In this document: in pieces, positions 1 to 20,913 of the stretch | How the letters are laid out: the number at the start of each line of letters is the position of its first letter | How positions within the stretch are numbered: the stretch's first letter is position 1 | Assembly: GCF_000332275.1 (NCBI RefSeq) | Contig: NZ_CM001776.1 | Coordinates: forward strand, 2,761,737 to 2,793,736 | Length of the DNA: 32,000 bases | Direction: 5' to 3' | Source of the DNA: Synechococcus sp. PCC 7336 | Lineage (GTDB): Bacteria; Cyanobacteriota; Cyanobacteriia; Thermostichales; PCC-7336 | Program-made: the position numbers and the translations under genes | Notes under the pieces: model-generated | Told to the model about the DNA's origin: nothing | What the model saw: only the letters and a program-made list of their open reading frames with translations | Databases searched by the model: none

Positions 1-1253
1 AGCTAGAAAAAGCATTGATTTCTACTAAAATTGCTATCCTACAAAATGGCACACTGCTGACCGGTCTCACAGTTACCGAGTGGGAGTCAAGTACCCATGA
101 CATTCAAAAAACGCTTGAATTCATTAAAATGAGGCTAGCCCATCTTGACTTCCCCAAAGAGGCTGATTGGAGACTAGAGCAGATTTCCGAGCTAGACAAT
201 CCAGAAACCGTTGAAAATTTATCTGCATATTACCTAAGCCGTGTCATCAACCGTGCCCGCAACTGGATTCAGGGCCAACGTAAAGACTTATTCAAAAACC
301 AAACTGTACGCTGGAGCATTAATCTTGGAGTACCGGTAGAGTATTGTGATTCTCCTGCATTGGAGAGATTTCAGCGAGTATTATCCCTAGCATGGTTGTT
401 ATCTAATACACCATCTACTGAAGAGTCATTGACTATATCCTCTTTAAATCTACTAGGAACATACCTGCGCCAATGGATGAAAGATAATGTCACGAATGAT
501 GAATTGGACTGTATGACTACTCCTGAAATATCAGCAGCTGTCTGGTCTTTTCTCAGCTCTCGTCAGGCAAGGGAAAAATTCTATACATTCTTCGACTTTG
601 GAGATGGTACTCTAGATGGCGCTGCCTTTAGGTTTTGGCGAGAAAACGAAGGTGATTCACTAAGAGTTGATTTTTATTTTGGCCAGGTTCGTCCTTTAGG
701 AGTAACAGCTTTTATTCAGCAGACTGCCTCGGAATACGAGACTTCTACCGACAAAATTTATCAGGCTCTTTTTGAGGTGGGATTGGCAGCAGGTGATTGG
801 CTATCTTCCGTAATAGAAACGAGTGTAACGCGGCGAAGTGTTCAAAAGCTCATAGCTTCGGTCGTTACAAATGGTATGAGTAAGCATAAAAACAATCGTG
901 GCATCTTATCTAAAAATGAATTAGGCAATAACCTAGAAGTTTTTTTAGGGGGTGGCGGCGGGCAGAATCCTTTCTTTCGAAACATGGTTCAGGCAACCTA
1001 CAAAGACTTCCAGCACGATAGAGCAGGAATTCCCCAGTATCAAATTAAGCAAATTCCTGTCCCGAATACCTTATCAATGAATGGCTTAGACGCTGATGAC
1101 TTTCATCGCTTTGCCGTTGCCTATGGTCTTTCTATACCCACTTGGGAAGGACCTGAAATCCGTCTTCCCAGTCAAGTCGAGGCAAATTATACTCTTACCC
1201 CTAAGGAGTTAAATCAAGTAACACCATACGAAGATACGAAAGATTTAACGTAA
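1..1253 (+). CDS. Hsp70/actin-fold (ASKHA) ATPase-like protein, nucleotide-binding domain only; 5' end probably upstream of the window
   Basis: The frame is open from nt 3 to the left edge; the ORF track starts it at a TTG at 15. Motifs occur in Hsp70 order: VRWSINLGVPVEY (cf. VITVPAYF), TTPEISAAVWSF (cf. NEPTAAALAY, ~nt 521-556), FFDFGDGTLDGAAF (cf. DLGGGTFD phosphate-2, ~nt 591-630), VFLGGGGGQNPF (cf. LVGGSTRIP, ~nt 941-975) and HRFAVAYGLS (cf. DEAVAxGAA, ~nt 1101-1130). No phosphate-1 DxGTT motif is visible, consistent with truncation by the window edge. There is no substrate-binding domain. Confidence 0.6.
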   Translation, partial: LEKALISTKIAILQNGTLLTGLTVTEWESSTHDIQKTLEFIKMRLAHLDFPKEADWRLEQISELDNPETVENLSAYYLSRVINRARNWIQGQRKDLFKNQTVRWSINLGVPVEYCDSPALERFQRVLSLAWLLSNTPSTEESLTISSLNLLGTYLRQWMKDNVTNDELDCMTTPEISAAVWSFLSSRQAREKFYTFFDFGDGTLDGAAFRFWRENEGDSLRVDFYFGQVRPLGVTAFIQQTASEYETSTDKIYQALFEVGLAAGDWLSSVIETSVTRRSVQKLIASVVTNGMSKHKNNRGILSKNELGNNLEVFLGGGGGQNPFFRNMVQATYKDFQHDRAGIPQYQIKQIPVPNTLSMNGLDADDFHRFAVAYGLSIPTWEGPEIRLPSQVEANYTLTPKELNQVTPYEDTKDLT

Positions 1254-1326
1254 GGAGATCTAATTTCTAATTCTCCTACTTGAGTAAAAGCAATTTTTGC
1301 CTGAGGTTGACTCATATTTCATAGCA

Positions 1327-4300
1327 ATGACCAATCAAAATCAATCGTCAAGCAGCACTGAAAGTTGGAATCCTGAAATTCCCCATCAAGAGGTAAGAAT
1401 TCGCTCCAACCCCGGTCGTCGCGGACTAACTACAGGCAAGGTTCGCAAGGCAGGGACACGTATTTTAGTTCAGGTGCAGTTTGGACCGAACGAGAAAGTC
1501 TACAAGCCGCAGAATCTGCTTGAGCTCTGTGGCGATGATGATAGTATAAAATCTCTATTCAAACAGAAACGATTTGGCGGCCCAGACGATTTAAGGCGAA
1601 TTTTAACCTATGAGAAAGTGAAAGGAAAACTAACCAATGTTTTCTACAGCATGGAAGCCAGTCAAACAGACTTTTATGCCCATCAGTTTAAGCCAGTGCT
1701 CAAATTTCTCAATTCTTCAGTAGGACGTTTGTTGATTGCCGATGAGGTAGGACTGGGTAAAACGATCGAGGCCATGTACGTTTGGAAAGAACTCCAGGCT
1801 CGTGCAGATGCCCGACGACTCCTCATTGTTTGTCCGGCTATGCTGCGTCAAAAGTGGCAAGACGATCTGCGCCAGCGCTTCAACATCTTTGCCGAAATTG
1901 TCAATGCCAAAGAGTTAGTCAATAAAGTTAGAACTTGTTTAGAAACCCAGCACCTCCAGCCTCTTACATGTATTGTTAGTCTAGAGGGACTACGTCCGAG
2001 TGCAAACTGGGAAGATCGGACTGTTAAAAACTCGCGAGCAGAATTTGCAAGACTACTAGATACAAATCCTGCAACTGACGATTTCGGGCTCTTCGATCTA
2101 GCAATTATTGATGAAGCACACTATCTGAGAAATGCTAGCACTGCAAATAATCGCATAGGTCGACTTATCCGCGATGCATCTCGGCATCTGTTGCTGCTGA
2201 CAGCTACTCCTATTCAGGTGCAAAGTTCTAATCTTTACCAATTGTTACGTCTTGTTAGCCCAGATGATTTTTTCAATGAGCTAATTTTTGAAAACATGCT
2301 TGAAGCAAATTATTCCATCATTCAAGCATTACGCTATCTATGGGCGAATCAGCCAAGGCTAGAACAAGCTCGGGCTGCCATCAAACAGTCGATGAGATCG
2401 GAATATTTTAAAGATAATCGTTTGCTTCATTATGTTTATAATATCTTGCAGGAATCTGAGCAGATTGATGAAGCAAATCGTGTTGAACTAGGTTATAAAC
2501 TCGAAAAAATCTCCCTACTCAATCAGTATGTCACACGCAGCCGCAAGCGCGATGTCTTGCCGAACCGAGTAAAGCGAGATCCACAGACTCTAAACGTCTA
2601 TTTTTCTCCTTTAGAACAAGAGATTTATAATTATGTGACTCAAAAAATTAAGCAACAAACTCGAGGCAGGCAAGGAGTCTCTTTATTTAGATTAATCGCT
2701 CGACAGCGCCAAATGGCAAGTTGTATGGTTGCGGCTCTTCAGTCTTGGAAAATTGATGGTATTCTAGGTGACCTGATTGATGAATCACTATGGGAAGATT
2801 TTGGAATTTCAGCAGAATTGCAAGATGGAGAAGCAGAAGAGCAATCACCTCTAGATGTAGTCCTTACCTTGCTCCAAAAAGTTAACACAACGGAATTAGA
2901 GAAGCAAGATAGCAAATATAATCGGCTCCAACAATTTCTCCATAGGCAGCTTCAAGTGAATGCTAGCGAAAAGTTCGTCATTTTTGCTTATTTCAGAGGA
3001 ACCCTCCAGTATTTGGAAAGACGTTTGCAAGCAGATGGAATCTCCACTTGCTTAATCATAGGTGGGATGGGAAATGCCAAGTGGGATGTCATTAATCAGT
3101 TCGCTGAGAAATGCGGTCCTTCAGTCTTGTTGTCTTCTGAAGTAGGCAGTGAGGGTATCGATCTCCAACATTGTCGGTTTTTAGTTAACTATGACTTACC
3201 TTGGAATCCGATGAGGGTAGAGCAAAGAATTGGGCGTTTAGATCGCTTAGGCCAAAAAGCAGATCGAATCTCAATCATCAACTTCAGTTTAGTAGATACC
3301 GTTGAAGAACGTATTTTAGAGCGTCTCTACGAACGGATTAATATATTTCGAGAGAGCATTGGAGATCTAGAAAATATTCTTGGCGAGACAACTGAGCAAT
3401 TGCTTGTTGAACTCTTTTCAGAGCAGCTTACCCCCGAAGAGCAGGAACAGCGGGCCACTGAAACCACAATGGCACTTTTGAAAGAACGTGCTCTACAAGA
3501 TGAATTAGAAACTGAAGCTATTAATATATTAGCTTTCTCAGATCGTATTCTTCAGTCAATCACAGATAGCCGGGAACAAGGCCGCTGGCTTCAACCTGAG
3601 GAACTTCGGACTTTTGTGGAGGACTGTTTTTCTCGCTACTACCCCGGTACAGTAATCGTACCAAAGCCAAATCAGGATAAACTTTATGAAATAACTCTTT
3701 CTGAAGCTGCTAAGGTTAGCTTGCAGTTATTTCTTACTCAAAACCGTTGTGTAACTCCTACACAGCTTCATTTATCGAGTATTCCAATTGCCTGCTTCTT
3801 CGATTCTAAAATCGCAGGCGTAATGGGAAAACGCAATGAACTTTTAGATTCTACTCATCCTCTAATTCTTTGGATTCGCCACCGCTACGAAACAGCAGCT
3901 CAAAAGCTCCATCCTATTTCAGCCACTCAAATTGACCAACAAATAGTTGGCCTACCTCTAGGAATTTATGTTTATGTCGTTTGTCGCTGGACATTTATCG
4001 GACTCAAAACAGAGAATAAAATTGGCTATCAGGTTGCCTGCTACAGCAACAGCAAATTACTCTCCGATCGAGTTTCTGAGTTTGTGTTGGCTAAAGCCAT
4101 GCAGCAAGGAGGGGATAAGCCTAATGCTCATAACTTCATTGACGATCTCGATCGCCTTTTAGACTTACATCAAAAATGTGAAGACTTCCTTGAAGACTCC
4201 TTTGGTAAGGCACTTGAAGAATTTGAGATTGAGAATGAAAATCATTGCAATATTCAGGAGCGTAGTGCTAGAGCTTTTGCCGAACGCAAGCAGCGCGAGC

Positions 4301-4485
4301 TAGAAGATCGCATTCAACGATTTAAGCAAGCTGGCAAGACCCAGATTATTCCAGCCACAGAAGGCCAGTTGAGAAAAGTAAATCGAGAGCTGGAAGTCAA
4401 GCTCAAGTCTATTCAAGAGAAGCGTGAGGGTATCGCCTTCGAGCAAGTTCAATTAGCTTCAGGCGTGATTTTTGTCGAACCGTAA
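1327..4485 (+). CDS. SNF2-family (SF2) DEAH helicase/translocase with beta-rich N-terminal region and ~350-aa unassigned C-terminal region
   Basis: The ORF is open from TTG 1297; the first ATG is at 1327. SNF2/SF2 motifs present: LIADEVGLGKTIEA (Walker A, ~nt 1741), IIDEAHYLRN (DEAH, nt 2110-2121), LLLTATPIQ (motif III), LLSSEVGSEGIDLQ and NYDLPWNPMRVEQRIGRLDRLGQ (motifs V-VI, ~nt 3190-3255). It lies on the same strand as the upstream ATPase-like gene, 43-73 nt downstream, and shares its low GC. Confidence 0.85.
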   Translation: MTNQNQSSSSTESWNPEIPHQEVRIRSNPGRRGLTTGKVRKAGTRILVQVQFGPNEKVYKPQNLLELCGDDDSIKSLFKQKRFGGPDDLRRILTYEKVKGKLTNVFYSMEASQTDFYAHQFKPVLKFLNSSVGRLLIADEVGLGKTIEAMYVWKELQARADARRLLIVCPAMLRQKWQDDLRQRFNIFAEIVNAKELVNKVRTCLETQHLQPLTCIVSLEGLRPSANWEDRTVKNSRAEFARLLDTNPATDDFGLFDLAIIDEAHYLRNASTANNRIGRLIRDASRHLLLLTATPIQVQSSNLYQLLRLVSPDDFFNELIFENMLEANYSIIQALRYLWANQPRLEQARAAIKQSMRSEYFKDNRLLHYVYNILQESEQIDEANRVELGYKLEKISLLNQYVTRSRKRDVLPNRVKRDPQTLNVYFSPLEQEIYNYVTQKIKQQTRGRQGVSLFRLIARQRQMASCMVAALQSWKIDGILGDLIDESLWEDFGISAELQDGEAEEQSPLDVVLTLLQKVNTTELEKQDSKYNRLQQFLHRQLQVNASEKFVIFAYFRGTLQYLERRLQADGISTCLIIGGMGNAKWDVINQFAEKCGPSVLLSSEVGSEGIDLQHCRFLVNYDLPWNPMRVEQRIGRLDRLGQKADRISIINFSLVDTVEERILERLYERINIFRESIGDLENILGETTEQLLVELFSEQLTPEEQEQRATETTMALLKERALQDELETEAINILAFSDRILQSITDSREQGRWLQPEELRTFVEDCFSRYYPGTVIVPKPNQDKLYEITLSEAAKVSLQLFLTQNRCVTPTQLHLSSIPIACFFDSKIAGVMGKRNELLDSTHPLILWIRHRYETAAQKLHPISATQIDQQIVGLPLGIYVYVVCRWTFIGLKTENKIGYQVACYSNSKLLSDRVSEFVLAKAMQQGGDKPNAHNFIDDLDRLLDLHQKCEDFLEDSFGKALEEFEIENENHCNIQERSARAFAERKQRELEDRIQRFKQAGKTQIIPATEGQLRKVNRELEVKLKSIQEKREGIAFEQVQLASGVIFVEP

Positions 4486-4516
4486 TTTTTTCAAGATTTG
4501 ACATACTTCCTATGCC

Positions 4517-4536
4517 AAAAAGACTATGGTCTTTTT
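4517..4536 (+). terminator. AT-rich hairpin AAAAAGAC-TATG-GTCTTTTT 30 nt after the SNF2 stop; possible weak or bidirectional intrinsic terminator
   Basis: Perfect 8-bp inverted repeat with a 4-nt loop whose 3' arm ends in a T-run. The stem has low GC, so it is weak. Confidence 0.3.
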
Positions 4537-4795
4537 AAGAATGTGTTTGGAGCCATCCATCACATCTGACAGATTCAGCGCCGGATTTACCTGCAGCTTC
4601 ACTTTGTTGATAGAGGATTAGGTTGTCAATTGCGGTTTTGTGAATGGCAATGAGGTATTGAGGGCGATCGCCAGTCCCACTTTAGGTTCCAGTCTCGTGC
4701 AGGCAAGAAAATATGAGCTGAGGGGCTTGTTGATGTGGCATTCAAGGAAAGCAATAACTGCAAAGATCCTCGGTAGAGATAGTCTAAAAGGATAA

Positions 4796-10510: not shown

Positions 10511-10666
10511 GGGGAATGAGGTTGGTTAGTTTGAGCATTGTCTGGAGGACTGATGCAGTTTGGGTTTAGTTTAGCTCGTGCGATCGCCCTTTGGCTGAGG
10601 GGGGTTGGGGCGATCGCCGCGATCGGGTTCGATTTCGTAGACTGTAGGAAAGACGAGGGGCGATCG

Positions 10667-11038
10667 ATGGAATTCCAAACGTTAGAGGGCACTTGGGAAG
10701 AGATTCTGACTCGTGCGGACGAGTTAGCCGGTCGGCGAGTTCGTTTGACTGTGCTGCCCGAAATTGATGGGGATAAGGCTGTCAAAGACACTGACGACAC
10801 TGAAGCATTAATGCTCGACAAAACGCTTGAAGGACTGGTTGGAGTTGTTAATTCTGGTGAATCGGATTTGTCTTCCAGAACGGGCGAGGCATTGGTAGAT
10901 CGAATAGCTCTGCAAGAGCGGACCGCGTTCTCTCTGAGTGACAAAGCTTGGCAGGCGTTTACTGAGGCGATCGATCGCCCTCCAGCAGATAACCCAGAGT
11001 TAGTCCGTCTGCTGCACTCGAGGTCTCCGTGGGAGTGA
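10667..11038 (+). CDS. TacA-like (DUF1778) antitoxin with divergent N-terminal half
   Basis: The C-terminal FSLSDKAWQAFTEAIDRPPADNPELVRLLHSRSPWE matches the DUF1778 tail. ATG 10667 is preferred over the ORF-track start at 10538. Its stop overlaps the toxin ATG (TGATG at 11036-11040). Confidence 0.6.
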   Translation: MEFQTLEGTWEEILTRADELAGRRVRLTVLPEIDGDKAVKDTDDTEALMLDKTLEGLVGVVNSGESDLSSRTGEALVDRIALQERTAFSLSDKAWQAFTEAIDRPPADNPELVRLLHSRSPWE

Positions 11039-11540
11039 TGTATAGATTGCCAGAGCCGTTGGCCGAGATCCACGGTACAGATGCATTTGACTGTGGGGAT
11101 GAATCTCTGAATGATTGGCTGCAGCGGCAGTCCAGACAGAGTGAGCAGGTTGGCAATGCTCGGACTTATGTTGTTTGTGTTGAGAACGTTGTCGTGGGGT
11201 TCTACTGTTTGGCTGCGGGGAGTGTTGTCAGACAGGATGCCATCAAGCCAATGCAACGTAATGCTCCAGATCCTATTCCGGCGATCGTTCTCGGACGACT
11301 GGCGATCGATCTCAATCATCAGGGGCAGGGATTGGGGCGAGGGTTGGTGAAAGATGCCTTGCTTCGGGGACTACAGGCAGCCAATGTCATTGGAGCTAGG
11401 GCTTTTATCGTTCATGCGCTTAGCGATCGGGCAAGCTCTTCTATGAAAGTATGGGGTTCAAAGAATCACCCGTCGCGCCCAAAACGCTGATGTTTCCTCT
11501 CAAAGACCTACGGCAGGCGCTGAAATCAGCGGGATGGTAG
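11038..11540 (+). pseudogene. GNAT-family acetyltransferase toxin (TacT-like) with an apparent 1-nt frameshift near 11430
   Basis: FDCGDESLNDWLQRQ...YVVCVENVVVGFYCLAAGSV...PAIVLGRLAIDLNHQGQGLGRGLVKDAL is a typical TacT/GNAT toxin core. The annotated frame ends ...HALSDRASSSMKVWGSKNHPSRPKR* at 11490. A shift of frame after GAT CGG GC restores the canonical tail AKLFYESMGFKESPVAPKTLMFPLKDLRQALKSAGW*, with its stop at 11538-11540. Confidence 0.65.
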
Positions 11541-12220
11541 CGCTTCTCTATATGGAGACTCTTCGCAGATAAACCACACCTTCACACGTCTGTCTTGGGA
11601 AATCTCCGAAGGGTTCGGACGGCATAGATCACCATAAGGAACAGAAAGGGATGTCAGGATTTGTTCTACTTGGAATTCGATGTGAAGGGTGGGGGATTAG
11701 GATTCTAGGAGGATCTCAGAATTCGATAAACCACATCTAGCTAGAAAACCGTAGTTTTGAAAATCAGCTACAGTGCTTACAGAGCAATGGCTTCAGTGTT
11801 CAGAGACTACCACTGGAAAATTCCATGTCTCTACGTGGATGGGGTTTATCATTTCCCTGACGAGTGGACAGCGCCTAAAACATAGTGTATTTTAGGCTTG
11901 GATAAGTGAGGTTCAGGTGCATAGCAAACTCAAGTATAAGGTTTAGTGTTTTCAGATGGGCTTGTTTTGTACTAGTTCTAACGGATTCTGTGGCAGCCGT
12001 ATTTCTGGCCTTATAGCAGTATTTTGCTGCAAGCTTCTGTAGATATAGTGCATTATTTTGTTGTAAATATGTGTATCTTCTGACGAAAGATGAACTATAG
12101 ATAACAGGGATGCAAGTTATGAGGCATTAAAATGTTTGCCTGAATAAGTAAAAACACTCCGACCACAGAAAACGTTAGAACCAGTTTTGTATCAATAGTC
12201 TGGACAGTTTTTACGAAAAT

Positions 12221-12290
12221 GGCTGAAACCCGCATTCTACCGTTGATGATTGGGGCATCCAGACGGCCTGAAATCCGCATTCTACCGTTG
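12221..12290. repeat. Two direct repeats (GGCTGAAACCCGCATTCTACCGTTG / GGCCTGAAATCCGCATTCTACCGTTG) ~45 bp apart, ~100 bp upstream of the MTase start
   Basis: Read directly at 12221-12245 and 12265-12290. The 15-nt core CCGCATTCTACCGTTG-type segment is identical in both copies. They lie in the non-coding AT-rich leader. A TATAAT hexamer occurs at 12333-12338. Confidence 0.8.
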
Positions 12291-12391
12291 CCTCTGAAAA
12301 ACTGTCCGAAGTGTTGCTTGTATATAACTCAATATAATTGGTCCTATGTAGTGCATAATTACTAGTGATGCATCTTCGCGAATAATAATTC

Positions 12392-13411
12392 ATGGTTGAA
12401 GTTTTTGATTTTTTCAGCGGTTGTGGGGGGACAAGCCTCGGTTTCCAGAACTATGGATTCAGAGTTATCGGTGCACTTGATTATGACAAAGACTCAGCAG
12501 AAACTTTCCGAAACAATTTCCCAAAAGTTACATTTATAGAAAAAGATATTAGGCAAGTCAAGCCTGAAGACCTGTCAGGCATATTAATGAAACAGCGCAA
12601 GACGCCTCTATTGTTTTGTGCATGTGCTCCATGTCAGCCTTTTACAGGTCAAAGAAGACTGATCAAGGAAAATGATTCCAGGAAATCTTTATTGTCAGAG
12701 TTCGAAAGGTTTGTCAGGTACTGGAAGCCAGACTTTATTTTTCTTGAGAATGTTCCCGGTATCCAGAATATAAACAAATCTGGAGAGGCTTTTAGTGGTT
12801 TTACAGAATTACTTGAAAAAGATAGATATAATTTTGATTATTCAGTAATAAAAGCATCTGAAATTGGAGTGCCACAAGTTAGAAAGAGATTCATCCTTAC
12901 AGCATCATCGAATGGAAGGAAGGTAAGGCCGATCAAGGAAATTCTTGAGAAATACAGCCAACCTGAGACAAGTGTTAAGGATTGGATTGCAGATCTTCCT
13001 GCGATCAAAGCTGGTGAAAGACATCAAACAATCCCCAACCATGCGGCATTCAACCTTTCGGAGCAAAATCTTATCAGAATTCAACATACACCTGAAGGTG
13101 GAGATAGAAGAGATTGGCCAGAAGGACTAAGGGTAGGGTGTCACAAGAACTATCAAGGTCATACAGATGTATATGGCCGTATGAAGTGGGATGAGCCAGC
13201 TTCTACATTAACTACTAGATGTATAAGTTACTCGAATGGACGCTTTGGACACCCTGAGCAGCATCGAGCAATTAGTGTTCGTGAAGCCGCCAGATTACAA
13301 ACATTTCCGGATGATTTTGTGTTTTATGGCAACTTAGGCTCATGTGCTCGACAGGTAGGAAATGCTGTTCCTCCCTTGATGGCTCAAAGGTTTTCCGAAT
13401 CTTTTATTTAG
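12392..13411 (+). CDS. DNA (cytosine-5)-methyltransferase (Dcm-type, complete motif set)
   Basis: Motif I is FDFFSGCGGTSLGF. Motif IV is CAPCQPFT, with the catalytic Cys codon at 12632-12634. Motif VI is FLENVPG and motif VIII is PQVRKRFIL. Motif IX is REAARLQTFPDDF and motif X is QVGNAVPPLMA. Confidence 0.92.
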   Translation: MVEVFDFFSGCGGTSLGFQNYGFRVIGALDYDKDSAETFRNNFPKVTFIEKDIRQVKPEDLSGILMKQRKTPLLFCACAPCQPFTGQRRLIKENDSRKSLLSEFERFVRYWKPDFIFLENVPGIQNINKSGEAFSGFTELLEKDRYNFDYSVIKASEIGVPQVRKRFILTASSNGRKVRPIKEILEKYSQPETSVKDWIADLPAIKAGERHQTIPNHAAFNLSEQNLIRIQHTPEGGDRRDWPEGLRVGCHKNYQGHTDVYGRMKWDEPASTLTTRCISYSNGRFGHPEQHRAISVREAARLQTFPDDFVFYGNLGSCARQVGNAVPPLMAQRFSESFI

Positions 13412-13421
13412 AGAGAAAATT

Positions 13422-15179
13422 ATGTCTCAAGATATGGATAGTCTCAAAAAAGCATTCCAATGTGGTAGTGACTATAAACCATATATTTCATCTATTGTAT
13501 TTCCTAAATACAAAAATCTATCTCCTTCGTCTGAACTAACACTAGACTTTCCTTTGACATTACTTATCGGAAGGAATGGAACCAATAAAAGCTCGATACT
13601 ACATGCATTATATGGTTGTCCCAGAGGAAAAAGTACAGGAGAGTACTGGTTTTCAACCTACACAGATCCTATTAGTGATAATTCAAGAGCAGCATACTTC
13701 TATCGATATACAGATGTGCAAACTGGCGACACTGCAGAAGTTCTGAAAACAAGAATCAACAGAAAGGGCGATCCTGATTATTGGGAACCTTCTCGACCAG
13801 TTCTTGAGTACGGAATGAAGCCATTCCCGACACTTGAAAACAAAAATCATCCTATAAGGTCGATGACCAGGTGGAATGCAATCAATAAGGAGGTGCTATA
13901 TCTAGATTTCAGGGCAGAAATAAGTGCTTTCGATAAAGCATTTTATAAAGCTGTTAAAAACAGACTGGCACATAGAAAAGCACTTAGAAAATATTCAAGA
14001 CCTCTCAAAGAGGCTATAAAAGAAAAACTTCAGAGTAAAAAATATTACAGAAAAGAAAGAATATCTGTAAATCATTTATTCACGCAAGCGCAACGATCAA
14101 TCGTCAACAAAATTCTTGGTAGTGACTACAAGGAGATTATCTATATTGAACATGATTTCTACTTTTCTGGCAGCTTCTCAGTTTATATAAAAAAAGGGCA
14201 CGAGAATAATTATTCAGAGGCTTTTGCAGGGAGTGGAGAGACGAGTATCATGCGACTTATTTATGCTATAGATAGATCTCCCGAAAAAGCATTGATACTC
14301 CTTGATGAGCCAGAGACCTCTTTACATATAGATGCACAGTATAAATTGAGGGAATTTATTTTAGAAAAAATAAAGGAAAAAAAGCTACAAGTTGTCATCT
14401 CAACTCATTCGCCATTTTTTGCTCGTGGTCTTCCAGATTGTGCAATTAAGGTACTTATTCGTGATGAGGACACAGAAAGAATTAAGCTGTTTAATTCATC
14501 TCCTGCTGATGAAAGCTCTTTTTATTTAGGTTATAAAAGACCTGAATCAAATAAGTCTTTGATTTTTGTTGAGGATAAACTCGCTCAAGCCTTACTAAGA
14601 TTTGTGTTAAATAAAAGACTTTCTGAAAGTCAGCGGGATAAAATTACTGTGGATTTTATCCCTGGTGGTGTCAACACGATGCTTGATATGGCTGCAACTG
14701 AAATGCTGAAGGATAGATCAAATGCTAGTTTTGTTTTTGACGGAGATCAAATGCCTAATGGCGGCATCCGAAATCCTGAAGAGGTTCCACCTTCAGACAA
14801 TGATCGCCTGAAAGACATTCTACAATGCACCTTTAAGTATTGTCCTCGTATACCTATGGATTCAAACAATCAAGAGCAGAAATTTGATCTTTATAGGAAA
14901 TATTTATCTTTTGCAAGAAAGCACTTCCGGTATTTACCTTGTCAGACCTCAGAAGAGTTTATAGTTGCGAACCATAAAGAATTTACTGATCAGAATTCTT
15001 CAGATCCAAAGGAAGTTTTAAAAGATTATGCTGAACGTAAACTTTCTGATTCAGGAGAGATTAATTCGGACGCAATATTTTATCTCCAACGCACACTCTT
15101 GTCTGATATCCCAGAGAATAATGAAGTGTTCGACCAGATTTCAGAAATACTTGTCGAGTTGTCGGACTATGCATCTTAA
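13422..15179 (+). CDS. ABC/AAA_15-21-type ATPase fused to a putative Toprim-like (OLD-family / DUF4435-like) C-terminal domain
   Basis: Walker A is LLIGRNGTNKSSILHAL (K56, nt 13587-13589). GSGETSIMRL resembles the ABC signature. Walker B is LILLDEPETSLH (D295/E296, nt 14304-14309), and ISTHSPFF is the H-loop. The C-terminal part has SLIFVEDKLAQALL (E384, nt 14571-14573), IPGGVNTML and FVFDGDQ (D440-G-D442, nt 14739-14747). The order and ~55-aa spacing match the Toprim E...G...DxD signature. The gene starts 10 nt after the MTase stop. Confidence 0.7.
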   Translation: MSQDMDSLKKAFQCGSDYKPYISSIVFPKYKNLSPSSELTLDFPLTLLIGRNGTNKSSILHALYGCPRGKSTGEYWFSTYTDPISDNSRAAYFYRYTDVQTGDTAEVLKTRINRKGDPDYWEPSRPVLEYGMKPFPTLENKNHPIRSMTRWNAINKEVLYLDFRAEISAFDKAFYKAVKNRLAHRKALRKYSRPLKEAIKEKLQSKKYYRKERISVNHLFTQAQRSIVNKILGSDYKEIIYIEHDFYFSGSFSVYIKKGHENNYSEAFAGSGETSIMRLIYAIDRSPEKALILLDEPETSLHIDAQYKLREFILEKIKEKKLQVVISTHSPFFARGLPDCAIKVLIRDEDTERIKLFNSSPADESSFYLGYKRPESNKSLIFVEDKLAQALLRFVLNKRLSESQRDKITVDFIPGGVNTMLDMAATEMLKDRSNASFVFDGDQMPNGGIRNPEEVPPSDNDRLKDILQCTFKYCPRIPMDSNNQEQKFDLYRKYLSFARKHFRYLPCQTSEEFIVANHKEFTDQNSSDPKEVLKDYAERKLSDSGEINSDAIFYLQRTLLSDIPENNEVFDQISEILVELSDYAS

Positions 15180-15218
15180 TAGAGTGTCGGTATCGAGAAG
15201 CTCTGGAGGATTTCAGAA

Positions 15219-15554
15219 ATGAGCAGTGAAGTAAAAGCAACAGAAGTATTTCAGGGTAGTGGAAATGTATTTGCCGACCTGGAGTCAGAAGGTTCTGGTA
15301 AATTATATACTCGCGCTCAAATTAGATTTCAAGTGTTCGGGATTTTAGAAGAGAAGGGACTCAAACAAAAGGCGATCACAGAGCTGCTTGAGATTAAACA
15401 GTGGGAAGTCTCTCATCTGATGAATGGGTACTTCGACCGGTTCACAACGGATAGGCTGTTGGTGTTTCTTCAGCGGCTGGATTGGAAAGTTACTATTCAA
15501 ATCAGTCCTCACAAGAGTAATGAGCCTTATCGAGCAGTTGTTCTAACTCGTTAG
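15219..15554 (+). CDS. XRE-family HTH protein (COG5606 / HigA2-like antitoxin or regulator), no cognate toxin adjacent
   Basis: The N-terminal GSGNVFADLE box, then KGLKQKAITELLEIKQWEVSHLMNGYFDRFTTDRLLVFLQRLDWKVTIQI, is the characteristic layout of this family. It lies 39 nt downstream of the ATPase gene. Confidence 0.7.
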   Translation: MSSEVKATEVFQGSGNVFADLESEGSGKLYTRAQIRFQVFGILEEKGLKQKAITELLEIKQWEVSHLMNGYFDRFTTDRLLVFLQRLDWKVTIQISPHKSNEPYRAVVLTR

Positions 15555-15712
15555 GGCGATCGCCAGTTTGAGCCTTGCTCAGCACTCGGTGCCGACCCTC
15601 GAACCCTAAACGTTTCCTTCAACATCGCCAACAAGCAAGCAGCGATCGCAAAGTACCCCCACTAGCCCCAAAAGAACGCGGCTGCTACTCCCCTCGCCCA
15701 GGATTGATGCTG

Positions 15713-15967
15713 CTGGCGAAATTCATATTCCGAAACATTGGCCATTTGTCTAGATGCCTGTGGCCCCCTTCCCCTAACCCCTACCCCCAACTTTGGGGGC
15801 AGGGGAACAAGGCCCCGTAAGGATTTTCGGCTGTTTCTCCCCTCTCCCAAACTTGGGAGAGGGGCCGGGGGTGAGGGCCATGCAGAGGACTTGCACCATG
15901 CCAATATTTCTAAATGTTAAATTGGCCAGCAGTATCAGGATTGGGAGAGGGGCCGGGGGTGAGGGCC
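15713..15967. repeat. Nested palindromic GC-rich repeat cluster (MITE-like small dispersed repeats)
   Basis: An imperfect ~33-nt inverted repeat joins 15713-15745 to 15898-15929 (about 25 of 33 positions match). It flanks two hairpin units in opposite orientation: CCCCTACCCCC-AACTTT-GGGGGCAGGGG (15778-15805) and CCCCTCTCCC-AAACTT-GGGAGAGGGG (15839-15864, a perfect 10-bp stem). A perfect 27-bp direct repeat TTGGGAGAGGGGCCGGGGGTGAGGGCC occurs at 15853-15879 and 15941-15967. Confidence 0.85.
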
Positions 15968-16149: not shown

Positions 16150-16290
16150 ATGGCAGACGTATTACTCAAAACCGGAGAGCTGATTCGTATCCCTGACGAC
16201 GAGATCGCAGCCTATCTCGAAGAACATACCGATGACATCGAGTCCCGTCAGTTCCGTGCTAAGCGCAAACCTATCAAAACCTCCGCTTGA
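16150..16290 (+). CDS. hypothetical 46-aa protein (MADVLLKTGELIRIPDDEIAAYLEEHTDDIESRQFRAKRKPIKTSA)
   Basis: An ATG-initiated ORF below the track cutoff with native-like GC. Its stop overlaps the TTG start of ORF 16287. I recognised no motif. Confidence 0.25.
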   Translation: MADVLLKTGELIRIPDDEIAAYLEEHTDDIESRQFRAKRKPIKTSA

Positions 16291-16367
16291 CTGACAACCT
16301 TGGCCGTATGTTACTTTGCTCGATTAGGGATAAGCTTGAGACGATAAATATACTGCTAAATATTCTA

Positions 16368-17162
16368 ATGGATCCTGAGTTCGCTCTTTTTCTAGATGAG
16401 ACAGGCAGTCCAAAGCCCAATAGGAAAGATGCTTGCCCATACTTTGGCTTTGGCGGGGTTCTAGTAAAACGGCAGGATGAAAGGGTGATTCGAGATCGCC
16501 TCGATTGTTTCAAATCGAATTGGGACATGAAGAGCGAGACTCTATTACATGGTTCAGAAATTAGAGCCAGAAAGAGAGGATTTGCTTGGCTGGGTAAGTG
16601 TTCTGAGGAAGAGCAAGAACGATTCTTCGACGAGCTAACCAATGTAATTACGAGTCTACCGATTATTCTTACAGCTTGCGTTGTAGATCGGCAAGGTTAT
16701 TTGAATAGATATGAAGCACAATATGGAACTAATACATGGGAAATGATGCGTTCAGCCTTCTGCATCGTTGTTGAGAGGGCTGCAAAATACATTGCATCTG
16801 AAGGAGGAAAACTAATGGTCTATTTTGAGAAAATTGGGAAGAAGGAGGATCGAATAATCAAAGGATACTTTAATGAGTTGAGGAGTAAAGGGAGTCCGTT
16901 CAATCCAAGCACCTCTGATAAGTACTCTCCGCTCGATCGCAATGAATACGCACAGCTACTGCGGGGCATCGAAGGGCTGCCAAAAACAAGAAGTGAGCTG
17001 CAAGTTGCCGACCTTTGCCTCTATCCGCTAGCAAGAGGTAAGCGAGAACCAAATAACAGAGCTTTTCAATCCTTAAAATCGAATCGATTGCTCATCAATG
17101 ACAGAATTGAAGAGTCAGAAATAGAAAGATTGGGAATTAAATATTACTGTTTCGATACTTAA
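16368..17162 (+). CDS. DUF3800-family protein
   Basis: The N-terminal MDPEFALFLDETGSP matches the family's DES motif near the start. It is followed by FGFGGVLV...LLHGSEIR and the C-proximal LQVADLCLYPLARG (the family QxAD motif). The ORF is open from TTG 16287, but ATG 16368 fits the family architecture. The gene is low in GC and lacks HIP1. Confidence 0.6.
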   Translation: MDPEFALFLDETGSPKPNRKDACPYFGFGGVLVKRQDERVIRDRLDCFKSNWDMKSETLLHGSEIRARKRGFAWLGKCSEEEQERFFDELTNVITSLPIILTACVVDRQGYLNRYEAQYGTNTWEMMRSAFCIVVERAAKYIASEGGKLMVYFEKIGKKEDRIIKGYFNELRSKGSPFNPSTSDKYSPLDRNEYAQLLRGIEGLPKTRSELQVADLCLYPLARGKREPNNRAFQSLKSNRLLINDRIEESEIERLGIKYYCFDT

Positions 17163-17409: not shown

Positions 17410-20400
17410 ATGTCCTTCGTCGGCCTGCACATCCACAGCGACTACAGCCTCCTCGACGGAGCCAGCCAGCTCCCCGACCTAGTCGATCGCGCCATCGAAC
17501 TCAACATGCCAGCTGTCGCCCTCACCGACCACGGCGTCATGTGCGGAGCCGTCGAACTGCTCAAACTCACCCGAGGCAAGCCGATTAAACCCATCATCGG
17601 CAACGAAATGTACGTCATCAACGGCGACATCACCGACAAGAAAAAACGCTACCCCCGCTATCACCAAGTCGTCCTGGCCAAAAACACCCAAGGCTATAAA
17701 AACCTCGTCAAACTCACCACCATCTCCCACCTCGAAGGCATGCAGGGACGCGGCATCTTCCAACGCCCCTGTATTAATAAGGAACTACTCGAAAAACACC
17801 ACGAAGGACTGATCGTCACCTCCGCCTGCCTCGGCGGCGAGCTGCCCCAAGCCATCATGCAGGGCCGCCCCGAAATCGCTCGCAAAGTGGCCCAGTGGTA
17901 CCAAGACCTATTTGGAGAAGACTACTACATCGAACTGCAAGACCACGGCTCCCGCGAAGACCGGCTCGTCAATGTCGAACTGGTCAAAATCGCCCGCGAA
18001 CTCGACATCGAAATCATCCTCACCAACGACTCCCACTTCATCTCCTGCAACGACGTCGAAGCCCACGACGCCCTGCTCTGCATCCAAACCGGCAAATCTG
18101 TCACCGAAGACAAGCGCCTGCGCTACAGCGGTACTGAATATCTCAAAAGCTGCGATGAAATGCGCCGGATCTGTCGCGATCACTTAACCGACGACGTTAT
18201 CGAAGAGGCGATCGCCAACACCATCAAAGTGGCCAACAAAATCGAAGCCTACGACATCCTGGGCAAAACCAACCTGCCCGATTACCCCGTCCCCCCCGGT
18301 CACACCCCAGAAACCTACTTCGAAGACGTGGCCTGGAACGGGCTGCTCGATCGCCTTCAACTAACCAGCCGCGATCGCATCCCCGCAGAATACGACGCTC
18401 GCATGCGCAAAGAGCTCAAAATCATGCAGGACAAAGGCTTTGCCGCCTACTTCCTGGTGGTGTGGGACTTCATTCGTTTTTCTCGCGAGCAGAATATACC
18501 GGTCGGCCCCGGTCGGGGCTCGGCGGCGGGCTCGCTGGTGGCCTATTCCATGCGCATCACCAATATCGACCCAGTCAAATACGGCCTGCTGTTCGAGCGC
18601 TTCCTCAATCCCGAACGCAAGTCAATGCCCGATATCGACACGGATTTCTGCATCGAACGGCGGGATGAAGTGATTCAATACGTCACCGAAAAATACGGTC
18701 AGGACAAAGTTGCCCAGATTATCACCTTCAACCGCATGACCTCTAAGGCGGTGCTGAAGGACGTGGCTCGCGTGATGGATATTCCCTACGGCGACGCCGA
18801 CAAAATGGCGAAGATGATCCCCGTCGCGCGGGGCAAACCAGCCAAACTGAAGACAATGATTGGCGAGAACACGCCAGAACCGGAATTTAGAGAGAAATAC
18901 CTCAACGATCCCGTGGTGACCAAGTGGCTCGATATGGCCATGCGGATTGAGGGGACGAACAAAACCTCTGGCGTTCACGCTGCGGGGGTGGTGATTTCTA
19001 AACTGCCGCTGGATGAGATTGTACCGCTGCAGCGCAACAACGATGGCTCGGTGATCACGCAGTACTACATGGAAGATGTGGAAGCTTGCGGTTTGCTGAA
19101 AATGGACTTTTTGGGGCTGCGCAACCTAACTATGATTCAGCGAGCGGTCGATTTGATCGAAAAGACTAAAGGTGAAAAGTTAGATATCGATCTGATTCCA
19201 GAAGGCGATCTCAACACCTATAAATTATTAGAGAAAGGCGAATTAGAAGGGATTTTCCAATTGGAATCTTCTGGTATGAAGCAGGTAGTACGCGATCTCA
19301 AACCTTCTAATTTGGAAGATATTTCGTCAGTGTTGGCTCTGTACCGACCGGGACCGTTAGATACGGGCATGATTCCCGAATTTATCGATCGCAAGCACGG
19401 CAGAAAACAAATTACCTACGGTCACGAAATCCTGCAGCCCATCCTCCACGACACCTACGGCACGATTCTATACCAAGAGCAGATCATGCGGATCGCTCAA
19501 GATATGGCAGGTTACTCGTTGGGGCAAGCGGACCTGTTGCGGCGGGCGATGGGTAAGAAGAAGGTGGCTGAAATGGAGAAACACCGGGAAAAGTTTCTCG
19601 ATGGGGCAGCCCGGAACGGCGTGCCCGGGTCCGTGGCTAAAGGACTGTTCGAGCAAATGTTGGTATTTGCCGAATATTGTTTCAACAAATCCCACTCCAC
19701 AGCCTATGGATTTGTCACTTATCAAACAGCTTATCTGAAGGCTAATTACCCCGTGGAATATATGGCAGCGCTGCTGTCTTCCATTGGCGGCGATCGCGAT
19801 AAGGTGCAGCGCTATATCGCCTATTGTCTGTCCCTCGGCATCGAGATCGAACCGCCGGATGTCAACCGTTCCGGTCTCGATTTCACCCCTTTGGAAAAGA
19901 GTATTCTGTTTGGGTTGGGCGGGGTGAAAAATATTGGGCAAGGGGCGATCGAGAATCTGATAGAAGAGCGCGAAAATAATGGCCCTTACCAGTCTCTATC
20001 GGATTTGTGCGATCGCGTCGATGGCCGCGCCGTCAACCGTCGAGCCTTAGAAGCCTTGATTCACGTGGGGGCATTCGACAAACTCAACCACAACCGCAAA
20101 CAACTCATTGCCGATCTCGATGTGGTGCTGGATTGGGCCTCCAGTCGGGCCAAGGATCGGACCATCGGTCAGGCGAGCCTGTTCGATTTGATGGGAGGCA
20201 GCACTGATAATAGCGGAACTTCCGATAGCTTCGACGCTCCAACGGCACCTCATACCCAGGACTACCCTCAAGACGAACGGCTGCGGTTAGAAAAAGAGCT
20301 ATTGGGCTTCTACGTTTCCGACCATCCCCTCAAGGACGTGCAGCGTCCTTCCCGCATTTTGGCCCCCATCAATTTGGGGGATTTGGCTGACTATAGCGAC

Positions 20401-20913
20401 AAGATCGATATCAGCGCGATCGCCTTAATCGCCAACCTCAAGCCCGTTACCACCAAGAAGGGCGATCGCATGGCCATCCTTCAACTGGAGGATCTGACCG
20501 GTAGCTGCGAAGCGGTGGTGTTTCCCAAAACCCATGCCCTCATTCACGATCGCCTCATCCCCGACACGCGAGTCATGCTGTGGGGCAAAGTGGATAAGCG
20601 GGACGACCGGAAACAATTGATCGTGAATGACATCGAACCGCTAGAACAGGTGCAGATGGTGATGGTGAAATTGGAGGCCGATCGCGCCAGCGATATTGCC
20701 GTGCAGCACCAGCTCGCCGAGATTTTGCGGGAGCAAGCAGGCGATCGCGAGTCTCGCGGTCGCATTCCGGTGGTGGCGGAGGTGTGTGCGGGCGATCGCC
20801 GCCGCTTAGTACGATTCGGCAACCAGTTTTTGGTCAAAGATGCGATCGCAACGGTGGAGAAGTTGAATGCCCATCGCTTTGAGGCCAAGCGACAGCTCTT
20901 GTTAGCCACCTAA
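17410..20913 (+). CDS. dnaE: DNA polymerase III alpha subunit, contiguous (not split, no intein)
   Basis: 1167 aa. The PHP domain starts [19 protein letters not shown]. The polymerase core includes [30 protein letters not shown] and [28 protein letters not shown] is read through without interruption. An OB-fold forms the C-terminal region. Confidence 0.97.

Follow-up and report, generated by a model that had tools for sequence, protein, structure and literature searches.

The 32,000-nucleotide (nt) stretch of Synechococcus sp. PCC 7336 DNA analysed here (contig NZ_CM001776.1, positions 2,761,737 to 2,793,736; hereafter the window, whose numbering is used throughout) encodes on its plus strand a C5 cytosine DNA methyltransferase (MTase) of 339 amino acids (aa; 12392..13411) and, directly downstream, a 585-aa protein (13422..15179) in which an ATP-binding cassette (ABC) ATPase is joined to a predicted Toprim domain. 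The 10-nt spacer AGAGAAAATT (13412..13421, same strand), read from the sequence, separates the TAG stop codon of the MTase gene (13409-13411) from the ATG of the ATPase gene at 13422. A preliminary description of this DNA had proposed either an unconventional restriction-modification (R-M) arrangement or an orphan MTase next to a merged PARIS-like abortive-infection gene. The open reading frames lie where it placed them, and the surveys reported below identify the two genes as a conserved unit.

The methyltransferase and the ATPase-Toprim protein

The MTase belongs to the C5 (PF00145/Dcm-type) class. It matches PF00145 over its full length (residues 3-336, 1.4e-61), as well as the TIGR00675 dcm family (1.7e-46) and the PADLOC MTase_II model (2.4e-90), and all catalytic core motifs can be read directly in its sequence. 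These are motif I (FFSGCGG, residues 7-13), motif IV (PCQ, residues 80-82; 12629-12637) with the catalytic Cys81, motif VI (ENV, residues 119-121; 12746-12754), motif VIII (QxRxR, residues 162-166), motif IX (RE..LQTFP, residues 297-306) and motif X (GNAVPP, residues 323-328), so the complete Dcm-type enzyme of the preliminary description is indeed present. The P-C of motif IV, the ENV of motif VI, the QxRxR of motif VIII and the RE of motif IX are 100% invariant in 71 MTases paired with a homologous ATPase. Within the clade of the window MTase the target-recognition region is also strongly conserved, and the members of this clade are therefore likely to have a common specificity.

The second protein is an OLD-family, HEC-04-like ABC-ATPase::Toprim protein, an assignment that draws on the Pfam families AAA_15 and AAA_21 (8.7e-19 and 4.9e-17, respectively), the PADLOC HEC-04 model and the predicted fold. 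Its ABC ATPase domain, delimited by invariant alignment columns, covers residues ~20-345 (13479..14456) and contains Walker A (G50-S57, 13569-13592, with K56 at 13587-13589), the ABC signature (S271-E273, 14232-14240), Walker B (L291-E298, 14292-14315) and the H-loop histidine (H329, 14406-14408). In an alignment of 34 ATPase-family homologs at 36-66% identity, K56, S271-G272-E273, D295-E296 and H329 are invariant, which bears out the four ATPase motifs originally noticed.

The predicted Toprim core occupies residues ~377-445 (14550..14756) and was placed by its invariant residues, by alignment to HEC-04 and by its fold. Its core residues are E384-D385 (14571-14576), G415-G416 (14664-14669) and D440-G-D442 (14739-14747); E384-D385, G416 and D440-G441-D442 do not vary among the 34 homologs. 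Searches with the Pfam Toprim, OLD-Toprim and DUF4435 families gave no match, not even when the C-terminal 245 aa were searched separately at E<=10. The PADLOC model HEC-04, an ATPase-TOPRIM fusion, matches the protein at 1.8e-29 over residues 203-444, and the ATPase-Toprim_I-B model does so at 1.2e-18 over residues 44-452; the GajA and Old models match too. The isolated C-terminal domain has HEC-04 as its sole PADLOC match (E=0.024). Here, the Toprim region aligns to model positions 312-379, with E384, D440 and D442 on positions 319, 375 and 377. Mutation of E319, D375 and D377 abolishes defence by HEC-04 (Payne et al., bioRxiv 10.1101/2024.01.29.577857). Equating the model positions with residue numbers of the HEC-04 protein is an assumption, on which the identical 56-residue spacing does not depend.

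Structure prediction points in the same direction. An AlphaFold model of the full-length protein (pLDDT 87.5) has Thermus OLD (6p74, 1.4e-14) as its best fold match in the PDB, followed by GajA. A model of residues 341-585 (pLDDT 91.1) has nothing but OLD or GajA Toprim regions among its first seven PDB matches, including 6njx, 6nk8 and 6p74; the best of them has an E-value of 3.8e-3, a probability of 0.97 and a TM score of ~0.3, and none reaches E<=1e-3. When the family profile was compared with PDB sequences, the ATPase half alone aligned, and the sequence matches to AriA, OLD 6p74 and PtuA are likewise confined to that half. We accept the C-terminal half as a predicted Toprim domain, with a structural match that is specific rather than strong. 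The Toprim claim of the preliminary description thus survives in its invariant E384/D440/D442 residues, the HEC-04 match and the OLD/GajA-like fold, and fails in its expectation of a Pfam Toprim, OLD-Toprim or DUF4435 match. With an N-terminal ABC ATPase and a predicted C-terminal Toprim domain bearing the Glu and DxD residues, the protein has the architecture of the OLD family that had been suggested, as the PADLOC models and the fold matches to 6p74 and GajA also indicate.

The proposed identity as a merged PARIS protein is rejected. The resemblance to AriA is limited to residues 169-344 in the ATPase half (169-334 by PADLOC, 268-344 by PDB), PF14491 (DUF4435) has no match at E<=10, and no PADLOC AriB model recognizes the C-terminal 245 aa. 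Beyond the Toprim core, the secondary structure of the predicted model shows a helical region at residues ~450-585 (14769..15176). Conservation is lowest in the last ~65 residues, which, together with residues 201-220 and 421-440, are the segments that diverge most between groups with different MTase partners. It is suggestive, at the level of sequence, that the variable C-terminal end may be a partner-specific or target-specific module.

Linkage of the two genes across bacteria and viruses

The ATPase-Toprim family is large, with >1,800 matches in a collection clustered at 90% identity and 362 clusters at 50% identity (E<=1e-30) among 1.84 billion representatives. It occurs in Proteobacteria, Bacteroidota, Actinomycetota, Bacillota, Planctomycetota, Spirochaetota and Cyanobacteria, and a viral protein family of unknown function, phrog_3940, matches the window protein at 1.5e-49. 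We surveyed 80 species-representative loci encoding the ATPase family and found a C5 MTase at 74 of them. The MTase gene is directly adjacent on the same strand at 57 loci (29 downstream, 23 upstream and 5 overlapping), lies 0.8-4.8 kb away on the same strand at 15 and is on the opposite strand at 2. Five of the six loci that lack an MTase end at a contig edge, and L037 alone has ~4 kb of sequence on both sides. Viral sequences gave a similar picture: among 69 IMG/VR contigs with a family ATPase, 66 carry the pair, 53 with adjacent genes on one strand and 9 with adjacent convergent genes, a layout that is common in R-M systems. Two viral contigs with flanking sequence on both sides have no MTase (L156 and L157, the latter with 194 nt downstream), and their ATPases are distant relatives at 26-28% identity.

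The linkage also holds when viewed from the MTase. In a reverse survey of the 80 best MTase relatives in IMG/VR, the ATPase gene adjoins 38 of the 42 MTases that are at least 49% identical to that of the window, with two of the four exceptions at contig ends, and none of the 38 MTases at 43% identity or less. As both the distant ATPases and the distant MTases are partnerless, the pairing defines a specific clade of each protein. The two proteins have diversified together, their pairwise identities being correlated over 71 pairs (Mantel r = 0.62, p <= 0.001), and close relatives of the window pair have junctions as tight as 16- or 8-nt overlaps or gaps of 3-8 nt.

These data bear directly on the idea that an orphan methylase merely sits beside an independent HEC-04- or PARIS-like abortive-infection gene, which was one of the two readings initially offered. 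That HEC-04 and IbfA function alone, and that defence genes cluster in islands, would allow for such a coincidence. Near-obligate linkage in both directions in ~150 loci from many phyla, gaps or overlaps of 3-16 nt, both gene orders and co-diversification all speak against it, as does the clade-specific pairing implied by the partnerless distant relatives. We consider chance neighbourhood very improbable. The preliminary description would have been refuted had homologs of the two genes never occurred together; they occur together almost always. Linked in both directions, in both orders, with convergent variants and with signs of co-diversification, the MTase and nuclease genes behave as the unit that an R-M system would form, and the pair is a self-contained, horizontally mobile two-gene module. 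The window carries an intact and unremarkable copy of it.

A Pfam survey of the genes that flank the pair at 78 loci, 146 in all, revealed no conserved third gene; the commonest families (Vsr, GHKL ATPase and S24 peptidase) account for 5 genes each. UvrD-like helicases make up 2 of the 146 neighbours, and no reverse transcriptase is among the 25 neighbour families listed. Defence genes such as type I HsdR, GHKL ATPases and AbiEii are among the neighbours. Vsr repair genes occur at 19 of the 80 loci, five of them confirmed by Pfam. This company and the invariant catalytic residues indicate that the paired MTases truly methylate DNA and that methylation is under selection, as judged from sequence conservation and gene content.

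Some loci have genes inserted into the pair. A GHKL ATPase (HATPase_c_3) lies between the MTase and ATPase-Toprim genes at L019 (4294-5946), L059 (4292-5953) and L070 (3189-5111), which may represent a three-component variant; two of the three inserted proteins have a Hypoth_Ymh C-terminal domain, and a type I HsdS-like gene is found upstream at L019. At L087 (1379-5979), a 1007-aa HEF_HK/GHKL protein and a Response_reg_2 protein, an arrangement resembling a two-component system, separate the methylase from the ATPase-Toprim protein.

In Escherichia coli, the pair is present in 8 of 5,426 complete genomes, annotated as 'ATP-dependent nuclease | DNA cytosine methyltransferase'. Lambdoid prophages harbour it at L001-L006, where Q antiterminator and holin/lysis genes lie on either side and the pair is antisense to late transcription, with the ATPase gene preceding the MTase gene, the reverse of the order in the window; one prophage copy is at NZ_CP010121, 1776566-1779400. 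The interval from Q to the lysis genes is a typical site for a defence 'moron', and is also where the stx genes sit in Stx phages. A tblastn search of 50,697 isolated phage genomes gave no match. Plasmids yielded distant relatives only, and the one inspected (H9) has no annotated methylase within ~4 kb upstream or 0.5 kb downstream.

The acquired island and its surroundings

The pair lies in a region of foreign character. The window as a whole contains 50 GCGATCGC (HIP1) sites, against 0.85 expected, and none of them falls within 10618..15555. The acquired island itself (11491..15555, ~4 kb) reaches from the end of a TacA/TacT-like gene pair to the first downstream HIP1 site and has a GC content of 0.36-0.42, compared with ~0.55 in the flanks. 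The HIP1-free acquired cassette of the preliminary description is thereby confirmed. No tRNA gene, integrase gene or flanking direct repeat was found at the island borders.

Upstream of the MTase gene, a repeat search revealed a leader element on the plus strand (12193..12316) that ends 76 nt 5' of the MTase start codon at 12392. It consists of two copies of a 23-nt direct repeat, CTGAAAyCCGCATTCTACCGTTG (12223-12245 and 12268-12290), which are 96% identical and 45 nt apart, flanked by a 20-nt inverted repeat (12193-12212 and 12297-12316). The repeats may be an operator or another regulatory site. An Rfam search for structured RNA upstream of the MTase gave no match, and promoter and terminator scans yielded no signal above the shuffled background.

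Downstream of the pair and still inside the island, a plus-strand gene (15219..15554) encodes a 111-aa HTH_37 (XRE-like) protein (PF13744, 2e-16). It starts 39 nt past the ATPase stop codon, has a strong GGAGG ribosome-binding site and ends 1 nt before the first HIP1 site after the island. The identical cassette including this gene is present on one other contig only, the short metagenomic L239. Homologs are absent from all 80 related loci and from the vicinity of the closest relatives, and on these grounds the HTH_37 gene is rejected as a component of the system. The protein could be a local passenger, a controller protein or an orphan HigA-like antitoxin. The same reasoning excludes as a component the DUF3800 protein (PF12686, 9.9e-09; 16287..17162), whose gene has an intermediate GC content and lies just 5' of dnaE (17410..20913). 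Between the HTH_37 and DUF3800 genes there is a perfect 27-nt G-rich direct repeat, TTGGGAGAGGGGCCGGGGGTGAGGGCC, in two copies 88 nt apart (15853-15967), with an associated inverted repeat.

Directly 5' of the island, at 10538-11490, a gene for a TacA-like antitoxin (PF08681, 3.4e-08) overlaps one for a GNAT acetyltransferase, the TacT-like toxin; this pair has host-like GC and contains HIP1 sites. The beginning of the window (1-4663) is a second stretch of low GC (0.40-0.44) without HIP1 sites. Encoded there are a 412-aa protein that no Pfam family matches (15..1253) and a 1062-aa SNF2/ResIII-type helicase-like protein (1297..4485), and the stretch is probably a further acquired island, possibly related to defence.

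Function and relation to known systems

The reading that we favour, and to which we give about an even chance, is that the pair is a mobile defence or addiction module that works like an R-M system. The C5 MTase would mark a specific sequence in the host's own DNA, and the OLD/HEC-04-type nuclease, with its ABC ATPase sensor joined to a metal-dependent Toprim nuclease and regulated by ATP, would do no harm only in the presence of an active methylase, and would attack incoming DNA that lacks the mark. Methylation, rather than mere protein contact, would restrain the nuclease, whose substrate would be DNA, and for sequence recognition it might rely on the methylase, in the manner of type III systems. 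In favour of this reading are the domain architecture, the catalytic residues that never vary in either protein, the near-obligate linkage and the lack of a third gene, and the acquired-island and prophage-moron locations also count for it. So does homology to nucleases of proven activity: the Walker A lysine and the E/DxD metal site, both of which HEC-04 needs for phage defence, are invariant here, and HEC-04 is toxic when induced (bioRxiv 10.1101/2024.01.29.577857). Gene decay provides a further hint. At L057, L148 and L151 (the last on the same contig as L186), an intact MTase gene stands next to an ATPase gene broken by interruption, frameshift or truncation, and orphan MTases of the paired clade are found at L195 and L200. 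The pattern comprises few cases and leans toward the nuclease being the costly, dangerous partner.

Several points weigh against an R-M-like function. To our knowledge, no Toprim nuclease serves as the endonuclease of an R-M system. In the nuclease, no domain was found that would read the sequence or the methylation state of DNA, and the combination of at least three MTase clades with one nuclease family is awkward if the nuclease reads each target itself. Decay in the opposite direction is seen in two metagenome bins, where L054 has a frameshifted MTase beside an intact ATPase and L037 has an ATPase alone. At loci with a classical endonuclease, the ATPase-Toprim protein can be no more than a second nuclease, and it could equally well have an accessory or guard role. 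Finally, the best-studied relatives do not discriminate by methylation: AriB of PARIS cleaves tRNA after sensing infection (PMC11464382), P2 OLD has been reported to be an abortive tRNase (bioRxiv 10.64898/2026.07.10.737580), and HEC-04 and IbfA act alone, without a methylase (bioRxiv 10.1101/2024.01.29.577857; PMC12111858).

Classical endonucleases are encoded at 11 of the 80 loci (~14%), seven of them HpaII, two SmaI and two EcoRII-C. The HpaII gene is located between the MTase and ATPase genes and is full length in six Bacteroidota loci and shortened in the seventh. In the six (L042, L063, L066, L067, L069 and L086), an M.HpaII-like MTase, R.HpaII (PF09561, ~1e-144) and the ATPase-Toprim protein are encoded as a triad on one strand; at L061 the HpaII gene is cut to 259 aa and the ATPase gene is intact. 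A SmaI-like endonuclease gene occupies the same intermediate position in two actinomycete loci, and EcoRII-C endonucleases flank two others. The ATPase-Toprim protein therefore need not be the sole or the cognate nuclease, and may be a second or guarding one.

Such loci would find a natural explanation in guard-type abortive infection, as in PrrC-EcoprrI or PARIS, which we regard as possible if somewhat unlikely. The nuclease would stay latent as long as it binds the MTase or senses MTase activity, and interference by a phage factor would release it to cut tRNA or DNA indiscriminately and halt cell growth; DNA methylation would then not be a self-mark for the ATPase-Toprim nuclease. There is a direct precedent: the ABC-ATPase nuclease PrrC is held masked by an R-M enzyme of type I. 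PrrC-EcoprrI and RloC are ABC-ATPase anticodon nucleases embedded in R-M loci, and the masking of PrrC by the methylase complex lasts until a phage anti-restriction factor appears. PrrC differs in having a HEPN-type nuclease and a type I (N6-adenine) partner, compared with Toprim and a type II-like C5 methylase here. A guard would account for the nuclease accompanying complete classical R-M systems (HpaII, SmaI and EcoRII-C) and for one nuclease family tolerating several MTase clades; the partner MTases fall into at least three clades with 25-71% identity to the window MTase, the corresponding range for the nuclease being 33-57%. The tight junctions and overlaps suggest a stoichiometric complex. 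Besides the tRNase activities of AriB and P2 OLD cited above, the triggering of PARIS by anti-restriction proteins (PMC11464382), the abortive phenotype of IbfA (PMC12111858) and the occurrence of HEC-04 inside the methylase-containing Hma system (bioRxiv 10.1101/2024.01.29.577857) agree with such a role.

The distribution of the pair is less easily reconciled with a guard. Its linkage is exclusive to C5 methylases, whereas a general sentinel of R-M systems would be expected with N6-adenine systems too, and most loci have no endonuclease to guard. We know of no phage inhibitor of type II C5 methylases. Moreover, the catalytic residues of the MTase are invariant even in two-gene loci, which a bait or scaffold would not need, and the nine convergent viral loci cannot be translationally coupled.

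The exclusive partnership with C5 methylases of several specificities would also be compatible with a role in DNA maintenance linked to 5-methylcytosine (5mC), an explanation that we find improbable. In this case the ABC-ATPase/Toprim protein would nick or process damage caused by C5 methylases, for example T:G mismatches left when 5mC is deaminated or methylases trapped covalently on DNA, and would be comparable in its role to Vsr or to SbcCD/Rad50-Mre11. The ABC ATPases MutS, Rad50 and SbcC act on lesions in DNA, and vsr-like genes are often found next to R-M pairs, a position comparable to that of the ATPase gene adjoining the R-M pair in the M.HpaII-R.HpaII-ATPase triads. Vsr genes, however, coexist with the pair at 19 of the 80 loci, for which reason the ATPase-Toprim protein is rejected as a Vsr substitute. 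The characterised close relatives are all defence or abortive-infection nucleases, with HEC-04 being toxic, and the decay pattern suggests that the ATPase is costly. The prophage moron sites and the defence genes among the neighbours likewise argue against a housekeeping task.

Comparison with characterised systems helps to place the ATPase-Toprim protein. HEC-04 and IbfA are most similar, with HEC-04 as the best PADLOC match, the same order of ABC ATPase and Toprim, and a shared Walker A lysine and E...DxD triad with its identical spacing. The alignment covers model positions 145-379 of 494 (47%), and the window protein is ~90 aa longer, the extra sequence lying in the N-terminal ATPase insert and the C-terminal helices. 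In contrast to HEC-04 and IbfA, which act alone, the window clade is almost never without a C5 methylase. As it neither matches HEC-04 over the full length nor stands alone, the window protein represents a clade related to HEC-04/IbfA rather than a member of it.

Within the OLD family, the whole-protein fold resembles Thermus OLD (6p74) and GajA, and the C-terminal fold the OLD Toprim. OLD classes 1-4 are distinguished by genomic partner, which is none, a UvrD-like helicase, a retron reverse transcriptase with non-coding RNA, or split AriA/AriB (PMC10568477, PMC12392090). None of these classes, represented by P2 Old/Thermus OLD, GajA-GajB of Gabija, the retron Eco8 effector and PARIS, has a methyltransferase partner, and the window protein, whose relatives have a C5 methylase at 74/80 and 66/69 loci, fits none of the four contexts. 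The pair is in effect a fifth, methylase-coupled genomic context for OLD-type nucleases.

In function, the closest counterparts are NTP-dependent restriction systems with a protective C5 methylase, and type III R-M. LlaJI, BsuMI and CglI/NgoAVII also combine a C5 methylase with an NTPase-coupled nuclease in one operon, and, as in type III R-M, the methylase of the window pair may supply the self-mark; the type III methylase additionally provides target recognition. LlaJI, BsuMI, CglI/NgoAVII and type III systems use McrBC-like AAA+, superfamily 2 helicase, phospholipase D or PD-(D/E)xK modules. The window pair differs in its ABC ATPase and Toprim, and methylation sensitivity is putative here. 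In a more specific form of the R-M-like reading, which we hold tentatively and think unlikely, the pair would be a type III-like system whose MTase provides both the self-mark and sequence recognition, and whose docked ABC ATPase-Toprim subunit performs ATP-controlled cleavage. Such a design would explain how one nuclease family can work with MTases that differ in specificity, also where a classical endonuclease is already present.

We found no published description of a C5 MTase paired with an OLD-type nuclease in the full-text literature, and a passing mention in REBASE or in the ABC-ATPase survey of Krishnan et al. (2020) is possible. PADLOC v2 has no dedicated model, and NCBI names the protein only 'AAA family ATPase' or 'ATP-dependent nuclease'. 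Few parts of bacterial immunity are as widespread as OLD-type ABC-ATPase/Toprim proteins, and how they are silenced and triggered is the key question of the family. Here the silencing partner is evolutionarily fixed and easily handled, a small C5 methylase, and the E. coli prophage copies allow restraint by methylation, restraint by protein contact, or neither to be discriminated in a standard host. If methylation restrains the nuclease, the pair would be the first Toprim-based restriction system; if protein contact does so, it would be a new guard-type abortive system. Should the type III-like reading be true, Toprim would join the short list of restriction nuclease folds and the OLD family would gain a fifth class. 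The family of ~360 clusters would add an unrecognised system to the catalogues of defence-finding tools and to the interpretation of 5mC methylomes.

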